Origin: Chiloscyllium plagiosum
Lineage: Eukaryota
Direction: 5' to 3'
DNA: 64,000 bases
Assembly (NCBI RefSeq): GCF_004010195.1
Contig: NC_057752.1
Location: 12,226,253 to 12,290,252 of the forward strand
Part shown: piece by piece, positions 2,817 to 60,415 of the stretch
Layout: every line of letters starts with the position of its first letter
How positions within the stretch are numbered: the stretch's first letter is position 1
Made by a program: the position numbers and the translations under genes
The notes under the pieces: model-generated
Databases searched by the model: none
Seen by the model: only the letters and a program-made list of their open reading frames with translations
What the model was told of the DNA's origin: nothing

Positions 2817-3700
2817 ATGTTTGCTTCTCTTCCCCCCCACCCAACTCCACTTCACCTGTGGTTGAGTGTCTGATCAGACTCAGTAAAAAAAAACATTATT
2901 CTATATTTTCACCACCTGGAAATACACCCTTATGGCCAGTGAACCATTATCGAGCAGAGCCTGATACGGGCAATGTCTCTGGGGGGAAAGTGAAGAGGAA
3001 GGGGAAGGACTAAACCAAAATAGAATTGGAGGAGAAAATAAAGCACTCCACCCCCCATGGTGCTCACCTCTCCCTAAAGATGTCAAGTGTGCTGGTGAAC
3101 ACCATGTACTCCTTCTCTAAGGCCACCTGGGCTCAAACAGAACCACCGAAGAGGGGCAGACAGTTGGCAGAGACTACCCCCCTCCACAGCCCACTGCCTG
3201 GACCTGTTTATAGCCTGGCCAAGCCCAGAAGCAGACCCACAGGAGGTCCTCCAATCTGCCCACACCCCTCAGCACTGGGTGCCCAAAGATCAGGAGATTG
3301 GGGCTGAAGTGCAAACAAAAACCGAGCAAAAAGGTTTTTCAAATAACTAAAAAGGGAGTGCAAACACTCACAACCAATTTATACACAGTCCACGGACTCC
3401 ACAGCACCATAAAATAAGCAGTTGGGCTGGGGGTCCATGAACCACAGCAATCTGTGATAATATGGGACTGCTTCATGCAGATCCCAGAATGAGGGAAGAA
3501 TCCTGCACAGAGAGCCTTCCACTGGGGATCTCCGCTGCCCAGTGATAAATAGACACACCAAGTCCTGTCTGGGCAGTGGATGAAGGACAAAGGATGGATG
3601 GTGTGCAATACCAGTCTGTACATAAGCTGCCATTTCAACTCCCTGAAAGACATACAACACACATTCCAGAGGCGGCTCAGGTTAAGAGGCACAGGGCCCA
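2817..3700 (-). mobile_element. Tx1-clade LINE 3' fragment, decayed, abutting the Gypsy LTR
   Basis: Minus-strand relics such as LWFMDPQPNCLFYGAVESVD and AINRSRQWAVEG. 3' UTR is homologous to 11985-12150, with a G-run and A-rich tail. Confidence 0.75.
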
Positions 3701-4330
3701 AAGGAGATGTGGGATCCTGGAGCTAATGTGAAATTCCGTCCGAAAAGGTGTACATGCAAATGGCCCTTTGGTTTCCCCCATCGCCACCAGTTTTTCCAGG
3801 ACCGGATCTTTCTGCATCCAAAGTCTGATATCGGCAGCTGTGACTGGAAGCATGTCCAAAACATTTCAAACCATTTTGGACTCTTCCAGTGGTGGTACCA
3901 CTGGTGATGTATCTGCCAGCGGGAACCAACTCAACGCATCCGCATTTGCTATTTGGCCTCCAGGATGGTATTCCAACTTGCAATTATATTCCCTTAAAAT
4001 TAGAGCCCACCGCTGAATTTGGCCTGGAGCTATGGGCTGCACTGCTTTGTCCTCTTTGAGTAGACTTAACAGGGGTTTGTGCTCCATTATTATTACAAAT
4101 GTATGTTCATAAAGGTATTGGTGGAACTTCCTGACTCCAGATAAGACCAGCAAACCTTCCTTCTCTATCTTGGTATATTTATGCTCTGCATTAGCCAAGT
4201 ATGGATGCATACACTATTACACGTTCCTTACCACTCGGCCACCTATGAGCTAATACCATCCCGAGGACATATGAGGAGGTATTGCATGTGAACTGAGTGG
4301 CCTGGTGGGTAAACGGTGACAAGGACGAGA
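3701..4330 (-). mobile_element. Mag-like Gypsy pol fragment (RNase H region)
   Basis: IEKEGLLVLSGVRKFHQYLY...HKPLLSLL...IQRWALILREYNCKLEYHPGGQIANADALS. Confidence 0.85.
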
Positions 4331-6806: not shown

Positions 6807-7003
6807 ATATTACTTGCTAGCTTTCTCTGAGGCTCTAATTTCTTCCTCCTTCCTGCTCTTTTAGTTCTTTATGTTCTGTCCAATCTTCTGACCTGTCACT
6901 CATCTTGCAGGATCATGTGCTTTTTCTTTCAAATTTGATGCTTTTGTTTTTTCAGTTAGCAATGGGTGGCTTGCATTTCTCTTGGATGATTTCTTTCTTA
7001 TTC

Positions 7004-7322
7004 ACGGTGGCACAGTGGTTAGCACTGCTGCCTCACAGCGCCAGAGACCCGGGTTCAATTCCCGCCTCAGGCGACTGACTGTGTGGAGTTTGCACGTTCT
7101 CCCCGTGCCTGCGTGGGTTTCCTCCGGGTGCTCCGGTTTCCTCCCACAGTCCAAAGATGTGCAGGTCAGGTGAATTGGCTATGCTAAATTGCCCGTAGTG
7201 TTAGGTAAGGGGTAAATGTAGGGGTATGGGTGGGTTTCGCTTCGGCGTGGCGGTGTGGACTTGTTGGGCCGAAGGGCCTGTTTCCACACTGTAAGTAATC
7301 TAAATCTAAATCTAAATCTAAA
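7004..7322 (+). mobile_element. HE1-type SINE (tRNA-derived V-SINE), young
   Basis: tRNA-like head with B box GGTTCAATTCC, V-domain GTGTGGAGTTTGCACGTTCTCCCCGTG, CR1-type tail GGGCCGAAGGGCCTGTTTCC and (TCTAAA)n. Confidence 0.9.
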
Positions 7323-8645: not shown

Positions 8646-8935
8646 GGCGGCACAGTGGTTAGCACTGCTGCCTCACAGCGCCAGAGACCCAGGTTCAATT
8701 CCCAACTCAGGCGACTGACTGTGTGGAGTTTGCACATTCTCCCCGTGTCTGCGTGGGTTTCCTCCGGGTGCTCCGGTATCCTCCCACAGTCCAAAGATGT
8801 GCAGGTCAGGTGAATTGGCTATGCTAAATTACCCGTAGTGTTAGGTAAATGTAGGGTAATGAGTGGGTTGCGCTTCGGCGGGTCGGTGTGGACTTGTTGG
8901 GCCGAAGGGCCTGCTTCCACACTGTAAGTAATCTA
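8646..8935 (+). mobile_element. HE1-type SINE
   Basis: Near-identical to 7004-7322. Flanked by direct repeat GAATTGGC (8641-8648 and 8936-8943). Confidence 0.9.
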
Positions 8936-11300: not shown

Positions 11301-11877
11301 ATCACCTTCCTCTATCTGCTATCATGAAAGCATAAAACACTTGCTCAAAATCCATTCTTCCCTTCCTAAAAAAGTGATATTCAATCAAACTGATGATTGC
11401 TACTAGCTAGGGGCACCTTCACTATGAGGCAATTAGTTAATTACCTGCACATTCCAATCCAATGAGAAAAAGGACATTGCAGAGGCCAGAGTTACAACTG
11501 CAGGAATTGAAAAAGTTACAACATACTTAATCCAGTCATCAGCATTCTCTGACTCAAGCCATTGATGGTGTTAGCATGCACTGCTTACTTTGATCTCACT
11601 CTAAGCCAATTGTTAACTCTTCCATGCTTCAAGTACCCAAGAATTGTAACACATCCAGATAGTGAAGGAAGAGCTATGAAACAATGAAGATCCACCTCTA
11701 CTCCAGCACCAGCTCAGATTAATTATCAATGTCTCAAACATATGTCTCAAACATTCCTATAATGTGACACATGCACATTTGCTGCAGATGGGTGGCAGTG
11801 ATTGTAAAGAGTTCCCTGCTTGAACCAGCTTAACAGCCCCAATCAGGGAGGCCTAGCTAACAGTTAAGAACAGGTGT

Positions 11878-12198
11878 GTGGAGTGCATTATTTCCCCCTC
11901 CAACTCTATTGTGATTTAGTCCCTACCCTCCTCTTCACTGTTTGATCACACAGCACTGCCCTTTGATGTGAAGGGGAGTGCTTGTCACTTGGCCACTTGG
12001 GTGTTTCCTATCTTCCTGGTGGTGGAAATTGAATAAAGATTCGTGCACTTTCTCTCACTGTGTGTCTCACACCTGCACACACACACCATGGGTGCTGGGG
12101 AAAAAATAAGCACTACCGCGGTTAGGCGGTAGTGTGGGGGGGGGGGAAAAAAATACCCAGGCGAGTGGAGTGCATTACTTAAAAAAAACAGAAAAAAA
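11878..12198 (+). mobile_element. Tx1-clade LINE 3' end, copy A, inside the 5' LTR
   Basis: Starts VECIISPSNSIVI*, then 3' UTR with AATAAA, hairpin, G-run and A tail. Bounded by AAGAACAGGTGTGT at 11866 and 12199. Confidence 0.8.
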
Positions 12199-12213
12199 AA
12201 GAACAGGTGTGTC

Positions 12214-12474
12214 AAACCGGCCATAAACAGGTCCAGACAGCGGGCAGTGGAGGGGGTGGTTAGGACCAATTGCCTGCCCCTCTTCCGCGGTTACGTTAGG
12301 GCCCGGGTGTCTCTGGAAAAGGAGCATGCGGTGTCCACCAACACCCTGGAGTTGTTCAGGGAGAGGTGGGCATCGCAGGGAGTGGAGTGCATTATTTCCC
12401 CCTCCAACTCTATTTTGATTTAATCCCTGCCCTCCCCTTCACTGTTTGATCACACAGCATTAAAAAAGAAAAGA
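12214..12474 (+). mobile_element. Tx1-clade LINE 3' end, copy B, young
   Basis: Uninterrupted frame KPAINRSRQRAVEGVVRTNCLPLFRGYVRARVSLEKEHAVSTNTLELFRERWASQGVECIISPSNSILI* (stop 12421-12423). CpG-rich, with an A-rich tail. Bounded by AAGAACAGG(T/A)G(T/C)GTC at 12199 and 12475. Confidence 0.85.
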
Positions 12475-14564
12475 AAGAACAGGAGCGTCAGACATCCTGC
12501 TCACACTGACAGCAGACTCAGAGCTAGATCAGTGTTAAAGGCTATCCACAAATAAAATAAAGGGCTATTTGGTGACTAGATACGGGTCTCGAGTTGTTAC
12601 ATTGCTTTTCTCTCACTGGCACAGGCTGAAGAGATTAGTTCATAATAGCAGTCTTTGAGTTGGAGTAACTATTTCTAGCATCACTCTGTTACTTGGAAAG
12701 TTTGACTCGTTTGAGCCTGCCAAAGACTGGGCCCAGTACATGGAAAGAATTTTATTTTTTCTGGGCAAAGCAATGAGTAGTTCTCTTGACAGCTTGTGGA
12801 CCTGCAGCTTTTTCAGTTATTAGGAACTTAACTGTCCCTGAGGTACCAGATGTTAAAACTAAATCTGACAACTCCTTGACCAGTTAGGGATATTTCAATC
12901 CCAAGCCTCCTCCAATTTGTACTCAGCAATTTGAGAGCTCGGGGAAATCTGTATTGGGATCTTTTGACTAGATTAAGACAACTGGCAGAGGCATGTGACA
13001 TTGATTTAACCCTTAGCAAGTGCATCTCATTTTGTGGGATTAATGTAACCCTGCAAAAGCACTTGTGAGCTAAAGCCCAACGGGACCAAAAACCAGTTGT
13101 AGTGCTTGTTTAATCATTGGAAAAATTTGGCAAGTGGAGCACGAGTTGCAGAGTATTCTGGTGGAAGTGGACATCCTCCCCAATCTGACTGAACTTGGGG
13201 GAGTGAAGGCAATTGCATAGCCTCACTCAGGACACATCATGAACAGAGGGACTTGAGGTCTACCTACACAAAAACCCCAAAACAAAGCCAAGTCTCAGCC
13301 AAAATAGTTAAAGTTTTCTTCAGGATCTGGGCTGGTAAGCCATTGTAGTTGCTGCCAATATGTGGACTCAAAACAGCAAAAAAGGTCATCCCACGAAATC
13401 TAAATTGAGTAAGAAACTGCATAAGCCCATATCCAGGAGAATGCACACCCTCGAAAGTCTACTTACATCTGGTTTGGAACAGTTAAATTGCTTTGCGACA
13501 TCCAAATCATAACCAAAACAAGTGCCTGCTTAAGTGGTCACCTGGTTCTAATGGAGGTCAATACCAGTGCAGCCATTTCACTGATTGTAGAACCGGTCTT
13601 TAACAAAATTTGCCCTGGACTCCAACCCTTAAGTAACTGTTTCAGTTACCACTGACTATAGTAAAAGGCTCAGGCCCAAGCTCATTGGGGTGAAATTAGT
13701 TGAGGAAGATTTACCTAGTTTGGCTAACATTTTGATTAGAAAATAGCAGCCTGAGTGAAGTCCTAATTAAATGCCCAGACATTTTCAGGAAGGTCTAATG
13801 ACTGTCAAAGGAGGCAAGGCCACCTCACATGTTGACCAGGATGCAATTCCATGATTCTGCAAGGCCTGCCCAGTGCTATTTGCCTTACCAGCAAAACCGG
13901 AGGCAGAACTCAGAAGGCCGGAAAGCAAAGGAGTCATCAAATCAGTTTAGTTTGTGCAATGGGCAGCATTAGTCATACCAATTTGAGCATCATGGGTCAG
14001 TTGCTTTTGTGGGATTTTAAACAAATGTAAACTGCTTTTCGCAACTGCACAAATATCCACAGAGCTGGGGCAGGGGCTGCCCTTCACTAATGTGGACATG
14101 AGCCATACATACAATTAGATGAGGATTCCCAGAAGTGTGCTATAATCACTATCCACAAGTGTTTGTACCAATATACCAGACTGCCATTTGGGGTATTGTT
14201 AACCTGTATAACTTTTCAGTAGACAATGAAGAACATTTTTACAAAATCTACCCCAGGTCACCAGATGACGTGCTAACAAGACAGAACAGGAAGGAGCAGT
14301 TAGAGAACTTGGACAGTCCTTAGGTGTTTGTCCCAGGCAGGCACATGCCTTGGAAAATAAAAAAAAATGTGACCTACAGAGTCGATAAGGGTTATATCTG
14401 TTGGAAGGTGGTGAGGGCAATCAAAGGTGCCCTGGTTCCCACATCTGTACCAGAGCTTCAGTCTTTCCTTGGGCTGGTGAGCTATTACAGAAAGTTCTAC
14501 ATAGCCTGGCCTCCATCCTGGCACCTTCACATCGACTCTTAAAAAGGGTCAGCCTTAACAAAAG

Positions 14565-14785
14565 GGCAGCATAGTGGTTCAGTTGTTAGTGATAGTACTG
14601 CTGCCTCAAGGAGCTAGGGACGTAGGTTTGATTCTTTGCTTGAGAGACTGTCTGCATGGAGTTCACATGCACTGCATGGGTTTCCTCCCACAATGCAAAG
14701 ATGTGCAGGTTCGGTGAAATGGCCATGGGAAATGCAGGGTTACAGGGATAGGGAGGCCTGAGTGGGATACTCTGAGGATCGGTGG
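14565..14785 (+). mobile_element. HE1-type SINE, decayed, inside Gypsy pol
   Basis: V-domain and GGGTTTCCTCCCACAATGCAAAGATGTGCAGGTT core. Confidence 0.75.
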
Positions 14786-16471
14786 AAATTTTGGCAGTCA
14801 TATTTGGAGTCAGGAGCTTTCACCAATACCTTTACAGGTAATAACATTAAAGTGGAGCACAAACCCTGCTAAACCAACTTAAAGATGATACAACTGTAGT
14901 GCCCATAGCCTCAGGCCAAATTCAGTGGTGGGCTCTAATACTAAAGTGCATATAATTACAAGTTGGAACTGTCCAGGAGGTCAAATAGCAAAAGCAGATA
15001 CCTTGAGCTGCCTTTTGCTGGCAGATATACCACTGGAGGTAATGCCACAGGAAGAGTCCGCAATGGTTTGAAGTGTTTTGGACACGCTTTTGGTCACAGC
15101 TGACAATCAGACTTTGGATGCCATGAGATCTGGTCCTGACAAAACTGAAACAGACGACGACAAGGGAAACCAGAGGGATGTCACAACCTTTTTGGACCTA
15201 GAGACACCAGACCAGAGGATGGCATATTAATGGGGAGCAAGAGCAATTTGTCCAGAGTAAAGGTTGCCACCAGATACTGGCTGAACCCCACCAGGGTCAT
15301 CCAGGGGTTTCCAAAATGAAGATGTTGGTGAGCCATTGACTGGCAGCCAGGATTGGATACAGACATAGCTGCATGGGAATGGCTGGGTAAACTCAGGACC
15401 TGCATAAATCAATGTGTAGCAGTCCAATCACTGGCTCATATGTTCTCAGTCAGTCAGTCAGTCAGTCAATGTGGAGGCCTACTTATAGTGGCTGATGTGC
15501 ATAGAGTTTATTCAAAACACTGACAGAAAAACTGAGCAGACCTTTTGCAATACACAGGCTCCTAGAAGTGTTGGCCACAGATAACAGGACATTTAGCTGC
15601 AAGGAATTTCAGTATTTCCTAAAGGTGAACAGTAGTTGACGTAAAGAGAGCTCCATACCATCAATCATCCAATAATCTGGCAGAAAAAGAGCAGTCCAAA
15701 CTCTGAAGGCAAGCTTAAAAAGAAACTAACTTCATGAGATACTGAATTGACCTGGGTTGCTATTTGATACTCAAACCACCCCTCGTGCAACTACAAGGAT
15801 AGTTTCAGCACAGTTGCTGATGGGGAGACGACACCACACCAGGTTAAATCTGATCTTCCTGAACTGTGGGGATTGGGTGGGTGAGCGAGAAAGTGACAGC
15901 ATGGGGAATGCCAGTCGCAGACACAAGACTAAGTGAAAGGGACAGTTTCCTTCAGGAAGCTTGGTGTAGGAACCATGGGAATAGCCCTGCATGGGTAAGT
16001 AGTCAGGTACAGGGATGACTGTATAAAGTACAGGTAGGTGTAACTGTTCTGAACAAGCATGGAGATTACATGAAAGCTCCAAACTTTCAAACAGTGCAGG
16101 AACAAAACACAGCCAGCTCCACAACAGCCTTTCTGCCTGTTGCAGAACAGGTGGGTTCCCCTTATCCATCAAGCTTTGAAGATGCCTTCAGAATTTCAGG
16201 TGGACAGAGAAGTCACTGCCTTGATTCCTAGAATGAAATTTGCCCGAAACACTCTGGCGAGATAGTGTGTTACACAGTCCTTTATCAGAGGTGGAGATGG
16301 AGGAACCTTACCTGGTGCTAAAAACCAGACCTGATTATGTCCCCAGACTCAGGAGGAGGGACATAGTGATTGGAACTAGGTCAGTGAGGTGTACCTCAGA
16401 ATGAGTTCTGATTGCAGTAGAGTAACAGCCTCAGCTGTCAGCCAGGGCTCCATGATTAAGAACAGGAGTGT

Positions 16472-17075
16472 TCCTGCCAGGCAGCAGGGTTTCCCTTCTA
16501 CACAGGAGTCCTCCTTCCAGGACCTGGGGTGGAGGGGATTGCACGCAGTAGTCTCTTACATCTGCGGATTACAGTGGATCACAGACTCCCAGCCCCAAAC
16601 TGCTTGCTTTGCAGTGCTGTGGACTCCATGGACCAGATATCTTTTGGTCACGGGCATGTGCATTCCGTTTAGTTATTTGAAAAGCCTTCCGTTATGTTTC
16701 TGTTGTACTTCAGCCCCACACTCCTGAACTTTGGGCACCTGGTGCTGAGAGGTATGGGCAGATAGGAGGACCTCCTCGTGAGTCTGCTCCTAGGCTTGGC
16801 CTGGCTTGCTGTAAACAGACCTAGGCAGCAGGTAGTGGAGGAGGTTGTCTGTCGACTGCCTGCCCTTCTGTGGTTCTGTTCGAGCCCAGGTGTCATTGGA
16901 GAGGGAGCACGCAGTGTCCACCAACACACTCAATGCCTTTAGGGAGAGGTGGACATTGGAGGATGGACTGCTTTCTTTCCCCCACTAACTCCTCTCTCCG
17001 CTACCACACCTTTTCACTTTGATATAAGCATTGCCCTTATCAGGCTTTGCTTTGTTAATGTTTCACTAGCCACAG
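16472..17075 (+). mobile_element. Tx1-clade LINE 3' fragment, decayed, in the 3' LTR
   Basis: DLGWRGLHAVVSY...WITDSQP, LLLGLA, AVSTNTLNAFRERW relics. Begins immediately after AAGAACAGGAGTGT (16458-16471). Confidence 0.75.
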
Positions 17076-17199: not shown

Positions 17200-18950
17200 T
17201 ACCAAAATTCACTGGACTCTGGGCAGGTCCCAGCAGACTGGAAGACAGCGAATGTCACACTGCTGCTATTTTTAAACAAAGGTTATAGAAAACTGCAGGT
17301 AACTATAGGCTAGTTAGCTTAACATCTGTAGTCATGAAAATGCTGGAGGCTATCAATAAAGAAGAAATAGTGAAACATCCAGATGGAAAGGGTTCCATCA
17401 GGCAGACGCAGCAAGAATTCAGGAAGGGAAGGTAGTGTTTGACAAACTTGGAGTTTAGATTAGATTCCCTACAGTGTGGAAACAGGCCCTTCAGCCAACC
17501 AGTCCACAGCGACCCTCCGAACAGTAACCCACCCAGACCCATTTCCATCTGACTAATGTACCTAACACTACGGGCAATTTAGCATGGCCAATTCACCTGA
17601 CTTGCACATCTTTGGACTGTGGGAGAAAACTAGAGCACCCGGAGGAAACCCACGCAGACACGGGGAGAACGTCTGTGTGGAGTTTGCACAGTCACCGGAG
17701 GCTGGAATTGAACCTAGGACCCTGGTGCTGTGAGGCAGCACTGAGCCACTGTTCTTTTGAAAAATTAACAAGTGCGGTAGATGTTGTACATTTGGATTTC
17801 CAGAAGGCATTCAATATTTTGCAGCATAAAAGACTCATCCATAAAGATAATGCATGGCATTCTGGGTAATGTGCTAGCATAGAGAGAGGACTGGTTAACT
17901 AACACAGCAGAGTTGGGATAAATGGGTATTTCTCTGGTTGGAGATCAGTGATGAGCGGGGTGCTGGGCCCACAACTCATGATTTATATGAATGATCTGGA
18001 GGAGGAGACTGAGCGTAATGTATCCAAGTTTTTGCCGATTACACTAAATTGAGTGAAAGGCAAACGTGTGCAGAGAATGTGGAGGGTCTGCACAGAAATT
18101 TAGATACATTAAATGAGTGGGCATGGCTTTGGCAGATGGAGTACAATGATGGTAAATGTGAGGTTATCCACCTTAAAAGTAAAAATCGTAGGTCAGAGTA
18201 TTATTTAAAATGGTAAAAGGTTGCAGCATGCTGCTGTGCAGAGGGACTTAGGAGTACCATATGAATTGCTAAATGTTGATTTGCAGGCACAACGGGTAAT
18301 TAGGAAGCCAAACAGAATATGGTCTTTCATTGCTAGAGATATTGAATTTAAGAGCAGGGAGGTTCTGCTGGAATTGTACAAGGTGTTGGTAAGGCCGCAC
18401 CTGGAGTATTGTGCGCAGTTCTGGTCTCCTTACCTGAGGAAGGATGTACTGTCTTTGGAGACAGTGCAGAGGAGGAGGTTCACCAGGTTAGATTCTGGAG
18501 ATGAGAGGGTTACCCTGTGAGGAGAGGTTCAGCTGCCTGGGACTGTATGCGCTAGAATTTAGAAAAATGCAAGGAAATGTTATTGATCATTTTATATGTC
18601 TCCAAGGGATAGAGAAGATAGAGGCAGGCAAGTTGTTTCCACTGGTAGGAGAGACTAGAATTAGGGGACATGGCCTCAAGATTATGGGGGAGTACATTTA
18701 GGACAGATGAGGAGGAACTGTTTTTCCCCCAGAGAGTAATGAATCTATGAAACTCTCTACCCAAGGAAGCAGTAGAGACAACTTGAATACATTCAAGACA
18801 CAGTTGGATCGGTTTTTGCACCGTAGAGAAATTAAAAGGGTTATAGGGATAATATTGAGACAGTGAATAGATCAGCCATGATCTTAATGAATGGCAGAGC
18901 AGGCTTGACGGGCCAAATGGCCTATGCCTGCTTCTACTGCTATGAAGCTA
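17200..18950 (+). mobile_element. CR1-clade LINE RT to 3' end, decayed
   Basis: VDVVHLDFQKAF, LYKVLVRPHLEYCAQFWSPYLRKDV, and tail GGGCCAAATGGCCTATGCCTGCTTCTA. Confidence 0.85.
17453..17750 (-). mobile_element. HE1-type SINE
   Basis: Reverse-complement HE1 with (TCTAA)n tail. Confidence 0.88.
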
Positions 18951-50210: not shown

Positions 50211-50516
50211 TTTAGATTAGATTTAGATTAGATTACAGTGTGGAAACAGGCCCTTCGGCCCAACAAGTCCACACCGACCCGCCGAAGCGAAACCCACCCA
50301 TACCCCTACATTTACCCCTTACCTAACACTACAGGCAATTTAGTATGGCCAATTCACCTGACCCTGCACATCTTTGGATGGTGGGAGGAAACCGGAGCAC
50401 CCGGAGGAAACCCACGCAGACACGGGGAGAACGTGCAAACTCCACACAGTCAGTCGCCTGAGGCAGGAATTGAACCCGGGTCTCTGGCGCTGTGAGGCAG
50501 CAGTGCTAACCACTGT
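50211..50516 (-). mobile_element. HE1-type SINE, young
   Basis: Near-identical reverse complement of 7004-7322 with (TCTAA)n tail. Confidence 0.92.
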
Positions 50517-58893: not shown

Positions 58894-59489
58894 CTAATTG
58901 CCAACATGCAATAAGCTAGGTTTTAGAACAGCAGTACAGCACAGGAACAGACCCTTCAGGTCATGTGCCAAACATGACAGCGAAACTAAAGTAACCCCTT
59001 CTGCCTGCCCTTTGTTCATACCCTATTTGTGCTTACCTAAAAGCCCCTCAAAACACCCATATCATCTCCATTACCATCCCTGGCAGCTCATTTCAGACAC
59101 CTACCACTTTTAAAAGGTGCCCCTCATCTTGAGCTCTGCTTCTCCCCCCCCCCCATGTGACCATGTAATCAGATGACATTTACTTTGGTTTGGATTTGAT
59201 GTTGCTAAGCAATTTAATTGTTTCAAAGCAGATGTTGGCTGGTATACAGGGTGTGCATGCTCCTGGATACCAGCCTATGATCTCTTACACAATTTAGATC
59301 TAGCAGTACTCTTGCCATCGAGTCTGCATACCAGCAGTGACTACATGCTGGTCCAGATATTGACGAAAATTGAACCATTTAATTGAGGCTTTGATTTGTT
59401 TTCGGGTCAGTACACAGCAAAGACAGTTCAGGATGTGTCCTCAGTGAGGATGTGGTAATTGCCTTCACGAAAACCAGAGGACAGCTTAA

Positions 59490-59762
59490 AAATACAGGGT
59501 AGACCATTTAGGACAGAAGAAACTTCTTCACCCAGAGTGGTGGTTGTGTGGAATGTGCTGCCCCAGAGGGCAGGAGGCCCAGTCTCTGGATTCATTTAAG
59601 AAAGAAAGAAAGAGTTGGATAGAGCTCTCAAGGATAGTGGATTCAAGGGTTAGAGATAAGGCAGGAACAGGATACTGATTAAGGATGATCAGCCATATGG
59701 AATGGTGGTGCAGGCTCAAAAGGGCAGAATGGCCTACTCCTGCACCTTTTGTCTATTGTGTT
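59490..59762 (+). mobile_element. CR1 3' end
   Basis: NFFTQSG/VWNVLP relics and tail GGGCAGAATGGCCTACTCCTGCACCT. Confidence 0.75.
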
Positions 59763-59764
59763 CA

Positions 59765-60415
59765 CAAGCTCAAGTCAGACTGGCAAGGGTGTCCACTTCC
59801 ATCAGAATACCCTACAACAAATCATTGGAAAAATGTGGCAAGTGGAACATGCCAGTTGCAGTGGTTCTCAAATTGCTGAGTAGAACCAATCGCATCTCAA
59901 TTCTAGGTGGCTTGGGAGTCAATATTCCTTAACTAAACCGGTCAACTCCTGAACAGTTAACTTTCCCAGAGGTACCACATATTAAAAAAGGTCCTAATAA
60001 CTGAAGCAGCTGCAGGTCCACATGCTATCAGGAGCATTACTCATTGCTTTTCATCTACTCCAATGTCATTTGGGAAAAACACATTCTACATATTGGGGTG
60101 GTGTCCAACAGCTAAAATTAAACTAGTCAAGCTTCCAAATAATGACATGATGCTAGAAATACTTAGCCCAAAAGATTACTGTTGAGCAAATTTCTTTGAA
60201 GTGTACGTTTCTCTTGCTGCCACTGAATAACTCACATCTGGTATCAAATCACCAAGTCACCTTTTAGTTATGAGGAGTCCTTGACCAGTCCTTGATCCAG
60301 GTCCTTCTACAAACAGCCTCTGGTTTTGTCAGCCAGTGCTCCTGGTTGGGGCTGTTAATCTGGTTCAATCAGGGAACTCTGGTCCAGCTGACTGATCTCA
60401 CTCCAAATCACTAAA
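59765..60415 (-). mobile_element. Mag-like Gypsy 5' LTR, PBS and gag fragment (same family as 11794-16471)
   Basis: LTR at about 60224-60415 (GAGTTCCCTGATTGAACCAGATTAACAGCCCCAA shared with 11809-11842). PBS-like TGGCAGCAAG follows. Gag is homologous to 12670-13200. Confidence 0.75.

Follow-up and report, generated by a model that had tools for sequence, protein, structure and literature searches.

A Tx1-type retrotransposon that prefers the TATA box of an old Gypsy-type long terminal repeat in Chiloscyllium plagiosum

Homing of Tx1-type long interspersed nuclear elements (LINEs) to other transposons, including long terminal repeat (LTR) elements, is already known. In crocodilians, Tx1-8_Crp and Tx1-4_AMi prefer LTR retrotransposons, so that the pairing of a Tx1 element with LTR elements is described there in general terms, and the passages concerned call a family target-specific when over 20% of its flanks fall in a single type of repeat (Kojima 2015, PMC4494074). 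Tx1-Mar and SINEU insert in Mariner-N4_AMi and have had heads added repeatedly, for which the author suggests transcription from the flanking transposon, one 5' extension being weakly target-like (PMC4494074), and Tx1L of Xenopus laevis targets Tx1D (PMC4494074, PMC6719617). R1 forms tandem arrays separated by a 14-bp target duplication, co-transcription with the target has been proposed for R2, and target sequence at the RNA's 5' end makes 5' junctions precise by pairing with the site (PMC2718515, PMC6895275). These cases belong to a general frame of non-LTR target specificity (PMC4640811, PMC6719617, PMC8869645), in which the 5' joining and second-strand start of apurinic-type LINEs are described as poorly understood (PMC6895275). 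Here we analyse 64,000 nucleotides (nt) of Chiloscyllium plagiosum DNA (contig NC_057752.1, positions 12,226,253 to 12,290,252; hereafter the window), in which an earlier note had proposed that a Tx1-type LINE was inserted repeatedly at one motif of a Gypsy-type LTR, and we follow both repeats through the genome. This LINE is a clean new example of such homing: it almost certainly targets the TATA box of the LTR, with a strong and long-lived preference and real leakage rather than strict specificity.

The evidence for this preference comes from a sample drawn without regard to flanks, namely the first 100 of the 4,308 exact genome matches to a 3'-terminal LINE pattern, taken in genome order on contig C1 and amounting to 59 clusters. 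By strict criteria, 22 clusters have both LTR halves, five the U3 half only, five the R/U5 half only and 27 neither; 32 of the 59 thus sit with an LTR half in place and none is nested antisense (a looser criterion gave 35, and we adopted the strict count). U3 halves away from any Tx1 are rare, at 1 of 31 in 394,111 fetched bases. The target core follows with at most two mismatches after 42 of 100 Tx1 tails versus 21 of 1,112 control A-tracts, and with at most one mismatch after 22 versus 3. On the LTR side, there are 1,085 exact target-plus-R matches, and by eye an A-rich tail stands before about 30 of the first 100, a count that includes a few heads or second matches at one locus. An older LINE subfamily occupies the same LTR site in 14 of 27 loci (30 rows minus self, same locus and a near-duplicate), and both this fraction and the 32 of 59 clusters exceed the bar of 20% of flanks (PMC4494074). 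The single preferred site that had been placed at the TATA/R boundary is therefore upheld, and flanks are enriched for the motif rather than heterogeneous. The strictness implied by the term site-specific is not upheld, since there are off-target insertions that carry their own duplications, mostly of 13-17 nt.

Several points weigh against so clear a preference. No LTR half is found by profile in 27 of the 59 clusters, some of which have only 1.5-kilobase (kb) flanks or lie in diverged LTR subfamilies and several of which are true off-target insertions; 58 of the 100 tails have at least three mismatches to the target core; and the per-tail motif count is inflated because transduced arrays make some junctions non-independent, so that the cluster count is the safer one. 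The fraction of Tx1 in LTRs is itself probably underestimated, because the LTR profile detects poorly a second LTR subfamily, which has a different R after the same TATA word and is also targeted (L025, L273, L281, L282 and L300; L numbers denote loci).

Target duplications are roughly 13-17 nt long and copy the variant of each locus; the lengths are approximate because automatic calling on 29 copies, which gave a convincing pair in about half, mixed real pairs with spurious short matches in arrays. We rejected the possibility that the motif belongs to the LINE tail, because each array repeats its own local target variant. One could also dispense with dedicated targeting: a weakly specific endonuclease acting on A-rich DNA would meet the LTR as an open, A-rich hot spot, and arrays would arise by tandem duplication. 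Such a view draws on the off-target duplications, which share little but an A-rich start (L005, L009, L011, L018, L019, L020, L021 and L026), on re-use of off-target sites (L104 and L110) and on near-identical units in some arrays (L093 and L100). We nevertheless regard it as improbable, given that about half of the clusters occupy one repeat position, in one orientation and for two subfamilies, that the targeted repeat occurs only once away from Tx1 in the 394 kb fetched, that the LINE's own 5' end consists of target-adjacent sequence, and that array neighbours differ as described below.

Other tailed sequences use the same target. Those unrelated to the reference Tx1 3' end (L073 from about 2200, the 3' flanks of L017 and L024, and L002, L100, L172 and L210) likely belong to a second LINE or short interspersed nuclear element (SINE) family sharing the site. 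Inserts consisting solely of LTR R (a few to 30 nt) and an A tail (L017, L055, L076 and L121) are possibly short LTR transcripts mobilised in trans.

The host repeat is a short, old LTR family. A 30-nt LTR word has 393 exact genome matches and the reversed control word none, and at 25 of 30 sampled loci the LTR, about 250 nt long, runs by eye directly into R. The TATA box overlaps the target, a CCAAT word lies upstream of it in 15 of 30 LTRs, the exact initiator-like word TCACTCT stands at one fixed spacing in 18 of 30, and an AATAAA-type word follows further downstream. A set spacing between TATA box and initiator is an established property of promoters, and on that ground the CCAAT, TATA and TCACTCT words would act as one. 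In related internal regions, Pfam recognises RVT_1 in a natural frame of L145 (E 1.5e-12) and, below the cut-off, RT_RNaseH_2 in L144 (E 0.0014), where two LTRs lie 4 kb apart; paired TG...CA LTRs around a gag-pol region with reverse transcriptase (RT) are what defines Ty3/Gypsy membership. The natural frames scanned from LTR-linked internal regions gave no Pfam integrase match, and broken frames downstream of RT contain, by eye, integrase-like words. The assignment to the Gypsy type rests partly on this domain order read by eye. Median pairwise identity in the LTR family is 0.79-0.81, and paired LTRs are 0.76-0.84 identical. Solo or unlinked LTRs make up 17 of the 22 Tx1-filled ones and 22 of 26 that are mostly empty. 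The sampled LTRs are long dead.

The window contains a decayed provirus of this family and further LTRs, with the following features.

11794-11865, + strand: U3 half of the 5' LTR, with a CCAAT word at 11839-11843 (profile match 11785-11863, E 6e-10)
11866-11879, + strand: target, copy 1, at the usual TATA box position of LTR copies (motif position)
11880-12153, + strand: young Tx1 fragment 1, with the last codons of open reading frame 2 (ORF2), the entire 3' untranslated region (UTR) and a short A tail (89% to L025)
12154-12198, + strand: degenerate target copy, 11-nt Tx1 micro-fragment and A-rich tail (motif and fragment positions)
12199-12212, + strand: target, copy 2 (motif position)
12213-12474, + strand: young Tx1 fragment 2, cut at both ends, with an A-rich tail (93% to L025)
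12475-12488, + strand: target, copy 3 (motif position)
12489-12601, + strand: R/U5 half of the 5' LTR, with AATAAA at 12551-12556 and a CA end (profile match 12491-12591, E 4e-14)
12602-16350, + strand: decayed Gypsy-type internal region, all frames broken and SINE pieces inside (remnants read by eye)
16363-16471, + strand: U3 half of the 3' LTR, with the target (16458-16471) at its end (profile match, E 7e-7)
16472-17075, + strand: older-subfamily Tx1 fragment, 3' junction and LTR 3' half missing (75% to L025)
2817-3787, - strand: older-subfamily Tx1 fragment, its 5' side adjoining Gypsy pol (BLAST match)
2686-2816, - strand: variant target (2802-2816) and R/U5 half of a second LTR (profile match 2804-2687, E 4e-34)
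60224-60413, - strand: related LTR, its target region degenerate and free of Tx1 (profile and motif search)

On both strands of the window, the motif AAGAACAGG(T/A)G(T/C)GT occurs at 11866-11879, 12199-12212, 12475-12488 and 16458-16471 and nowhere else, which recovers all four positions given in the earlier note, three in the 5' LTR and one in the 3' LTR. Its two Tx1 ends in the 5' LTR are also there, as young 3' pieces (11880-12141 and 12213-12461) with 89% and 93% identity to the natural young copy L025, but a third fragment of 11 nt (12167-12177), with the same 5' start as fragment 1, sits behind the degenerate target copy. In the 3' LTR, a Tx1 piece (75% identity to L025, BLAST match 16520-16991) starts right after the motif, as had been said; it has no tail, second target copy or LTR 3' half and therefore counts for the 5' junction only. 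The fourth piece, on the minus strand (BLAST match 3742-2989, 75% identity), was likewise described correctly as a tail joined to a homologous motif: the variant target at 2802-2816 comes directly after the tail and is followed by the LTR 3' half, and the 5' side joins Gypsy pol (3788-4160), not U3. The AAG form of the target is a variant private to the window provirus, most LTR copies having TATAAAC there, and its recurrence in the target repeats is evidence of their having been copied from the local target. The LTR near 60224 does lack both motif and Tx1 over 60224-60413, as claimed, but it is weak evidence because, counted by eye, U3 and not a tail precedes the motif at about 70 of the 100 listed sites where it is intact.

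The internal region at 12602-16350 has no open frame of 150 amino acids, and a SINE piece interrupts its pol at about 14600-14780. A third decayed Gypsy copy at 59000-60413 (- strand), with LTR, leader and gag-like remnant interrupted by other repeats, is 68-87% identical to the main copy. The SINE family, of about 300 nt, has about a dozen copies in the window with 68-96% identity, including those at 7003-7316, 8646-8935, 17454-17753 and 50211-50516. A search of the window for tRNA genes found none.

The insertions are independent events, as had been argued from the window: directly behind the TATA box, 16 fragments have 15 distinct 5' breakpoints, rather than junctions identical in all LTR copies. 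An alternative view, in which the Gypsy element or segmental duplication multiplied a single ancestral insertion or a small number of them, is favoured by a few junctions common to unlinked loci and by one near-duplicate pair of loci, L276/L278. This view has to contend not only with the 15 breakpoints but also with the window provirus, whose two LTRs hold different inserts of different age, with the 76-84% identity of paired LTRs versus about 92% among young Tx1 copies, and with the differences upstream of shared-junction pairs. It is already refuted as a general explanation, and we give it almost no credence. The Gypsy element did not spread the Tx1 copies, because junctions differ and the young copies (about 92%) are of much more recent date than the LTRs (about 80%). 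The label of a parasite of an LTR retrotransposon suits the young copies poorly, because the sampled LTRs are long dead and mostly solo or unlinked (17 of the 22 filled ones); the older Tx1 subfamily may, from its similar divergence, overlap the active period of the Gypsy element. At L131 (5389-5623 and 8675-8785), a truncated Tx1 is bordered on both sides by a copy of the LTR 3' half together with some 700 nt of flanking sequence, through either a local duplication or a very long target duplication.

Long copies of the LINE span about 7 kb, and a word marking the start of its own 5' UTR has 211 exact matches in the genome. A natural open frame in L184 (4124-6247) matches RVT_1 (E 4e-19), Exo_endo_phos short of the curated cut-off (E 2e-4) and the endonuclease region of human L1 ORF2p (E 6e-9), so that one natural frame has the N-terminal apurinic-type endonuclease and subsequent RT of an ORF2; the GDFN word is invariant across the 15 sequences compared. 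A frame in the ORF1 position, beginning after the 5' UTR, recurs in many copies and has no Pfam match, and none of 20 long loci has both frames intact. A-rich tails, 5' truncation and target-site duplications are all present. The closest LINE proteins include those of turtle and tortoise, at 44-51% identity, and sturgeon, and among the labelled proteins of highest identity are one from horn shark (62%, covering half the query) and one from white shark (74%, covering a short piece). In an RT tree of 30 rows (1 of 31 dropped as too short), which ran without Tx1L, Keno or L1 references, the LINE groups at 100/99 with sturgeon, turtle and one unlabelled protein, and the sister (99/99) is a pair including a fish protein labelled "transposon TX1 149 kDa protein". 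The identification as an L1/Tx1-type LINE is supported by these ORF2 domains. Young copies are about 92% identical across loci, and the older subfamily is mostly 67-78% identical to them. No Rfam family is found in L050, L184 and L247, which means that they have no known ribozyme or small nuclear RNA (snRNA) head. The 5' UTR of long copies (L156-L180, 600-1500; L247, 650-1400) has a purine-rich microsatellite followed by an array, variable in length, of GC-rich repeats of a few dozen bases each. The 3' UTR has two stem-loop-like inverted repeats (L025, about 1745-1775 and about 1900-1930), and 5' breakpoints cluster just upstream of the first.

The arrays preserve a record of how these copies were joined at their 5' ends. 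In a survey of 218 fragments at 83 loci, with breakpoints counted as shared when within 3 nt, 42 of 121 adjacent pairs share a 5' breakpoint versus 2.3% of random pairs, and such pairs occur in 30 of 42 array loci. Tandem duplication, as the hot-spot view would have it, is hard to reconcile with the fact that 23 of the 42 pairs have different 3' ends and that many differ at subfamily-marking sites (at least two such sites in 23 of 40 pairs). Beyond the first 40 nt, agreement at these sites is 0.73 for same-break pairs, 0.71 for other neighbours and 0.54 for unlinked copies. Of the rare variants lying in the first 12 nt after the break, 9 of 17 are shared by same-break pairs versus 0 of 14 by other neighbours; the counts are 22 of 103 versus 11 of 153 at 13-70 nt, and 20 of 234 versus 15 of 215 beyond 70 nt. 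These numbers are small, the first bin may hold alignment-edge effects and some pairs look like plain duplicates. The pattern fits new cDNA from another donor pairing with the first bases of the old neighbour, and from these comparisons homology-guided 5' joining probably operates in a substantial share of events. The overall identity of same-break neighbours (0.945, versus 0.933 for other neighbours and 0.915 for unlinked copies) tells against this and leaves room for local duplication or gene conversion.

The 5'-complete copies carry what appears to be the new twist in a story whose homing part was known, an LTR-derived front end. Among 68 5' ends, 24 start with the target and the first ~65 nt of LTR R, 43 with a piece of the LINE's own 3' UTR (38 of which keep the last ~20 nt of the R head) and one with neither; the 43 include L267, which looks LTR-type by eye, and the counts cover one 5' UTR variant and a few other copies. 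Twenty additional loci show the same two head types. When 50 heads were aligned to natural LTRs, 39 carried LTR sequence from the target onward, four with no target copy in front began at -8, -2, -1 and +3 from the initiator A, and seven were compound, deleted, misfiled or unmatched; none of the 50 began between -17 and -8. Compound leaders that include old tails and target copies are common to unlinked loci (L209/L247, L193/L214 and L229/L250), with different upstream sequence within each pair, and the L247 head follows its local LTR up to the initiator word and then matches the distant locus L209. No RNA record containing the 5' region was listed. Of four runs compared with a head locus and four with an empty LTR, reads came from the one raw run in which the organism was represented (about 2% of it covered); they number 69 and 162, have no concentration of molecule starts and do not inform on the start site. 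Many 5' heads reach only 20-150 nt into the 5' UTR before an A tail and target (for example L201, L202, L209, L210, L217, L219, L227, L229 and L230); they are retrotransposed copies of short RNAs from the 5' part of the LINE. A tails are frequent on internal and 3'-cut LINE pieces as well, which suggests that RNA fragments were tailed or that priming was untemplated.

We propose a cycle that would join these observations. The ORF2 endonuclease would nick the T-rich strand at the TATA box, with target-primed reverse transcription from the A tail. The duplicated target is struck again, as the head-to-tail arrays show. A full insertion reads U3-TATA-R-LINE, in which promoter and predicted start site stay intact before the LINE. 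The RNA would begin 29 nt below the TATA box, at the initiator-like word, and read through intervening sequence, and read-through RNA of this kind may have produced the compound leaders found at unlinked loci. New cDNA would often pair with DNA just downstream of the target, which would set the 5' junction, the partner being R for full-length copies and the start of the previous fragment for truncated ones; pairing would also prevent the loss of about 15 nt per cycle. Copies made in this way would begin, when 5'-complete, with the first ~65 nt of R or, in the derived form, with a piece of the LINE 3' UTR ahead of the last ~20 nt of that head, as is observed. That a ~7-kb Tx1-type LINE family inserts in sense at the LTR TATA box and likely relies on the LTR promoter is, overall, the reading we think fairly probable, and the borrowing of that promoter, for which the arrangement of sequences argues, seems on balance the better supposition. 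More tentatively, and as a serious possibility falling just short of probable, a promoter-less LINE may treat dead solo LTRs, in their thousands, as a scattered replacement for ribosomal DNA, with a head of sequence downstream of its target that both rebuilds the start site and pairs the cDNA with the landing site; this pairing would explain the copied truncation points.

Some of the heads fit this cycle poorly. Among about 18 LTR-type heads whose local R can be identified, only about 4 agree with it over the first 15-35 nt (L183, L193, L194 and L247; by eye). The others show donor variants that begin inside the target, so that their RNA would have to start higher up, in an array, or come from an internal promoter located at the target word. 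The support for the start site comes from four heads picked post hoc, of which L267 may be a diverged on-target head. The same count of about 4 in about 18 led us to reject a rule by which the local LTR supplies the first ~14 nt of all full-length heads. L1-type LINEs generally have internal promoters, and the present one might be an ordinary target-preferring Tx1 with its own, which acquired the head once by 5' transduction, keeps it as 5' UTR and finds in the LTR merely a safe landing place. This would suit the donor variants that most LTR-type heads hold from within the target onward, the Tx1-specific GT-repeat stretch of the distal head, which is therefore old and fixed, and the full-length copies outside LTRs (L165, L254 and L320). 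Yet the variants of the proximal head are those of the LTRs themselves, so that it must have been renewed repeatedly; the commoner head type lacks most of R and has no fixed starting point, unlinked loci have compound leaders in common, and the four target-less heads start near the initiator; an internal promoter with a head acquired once thus appears rather unlikely to us, if less so than an untargeted hot spot.

In literature covered mostly at abstract level, with Repbase, Dfam and subscription journals lying outside it, we found no account of this LINE family, of a TATA-box target or of an LTR-derived Tx1 head. What the family adds is mechanistic: thousands of natural re-insertions at one site record the 5' joining step, in shared breakpoints with a short, locally copied stretch and in a head made of downstream target. 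If promoter borrowing is true, the co-transcription strategy proposed for R2 would extend from host gene arrays to extinct LTR promoters, and an endonuclease aimed at a TATA-box context would be identified. Like R1 and R2, the present LINE forms arrays with target duplications, has a proposed co-transcription and carries target sequence on its RNA; unlike it, R1 and R2 have RNAs with sequence from upstream of the site and reside in a host gene array, whereas here the head is from downstream and the LTRs are dispersed and dead, and the R2 endonuclease is of a different class. The specificity of the Tx1L endonuclease has reportedly been studied biochemically, to judge from cited titles, whereas the present LINE is known from sequence. 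Both are apurinic-type endonuclease LINEs aimed at another transposon, which for Tx1L is a piggyBac-type DNA element, not an LTR (PMC4494074, PMC6719617). With Tx1-Mar and SINEU, the present LINE shares a transposon target and head addition, but theirs is a DNA transposon with two hot regions, one per orientation, and their heads are mostly U1 or U2 snRNA (PMC4494074), while here there is one site at the TATA box, one orientation and a head of sequence downstream of the target. Tx1-8_Crp and Tx1-4_AMi share the LTR preference with the present LINE; the main-text passages on them give no LTR superfamily, position, orientation or LTR-derived head, and the head of Tx1-4_AMi is U1-derived (PMC4494074), whereas that of the present LINE is derived from the LTR.

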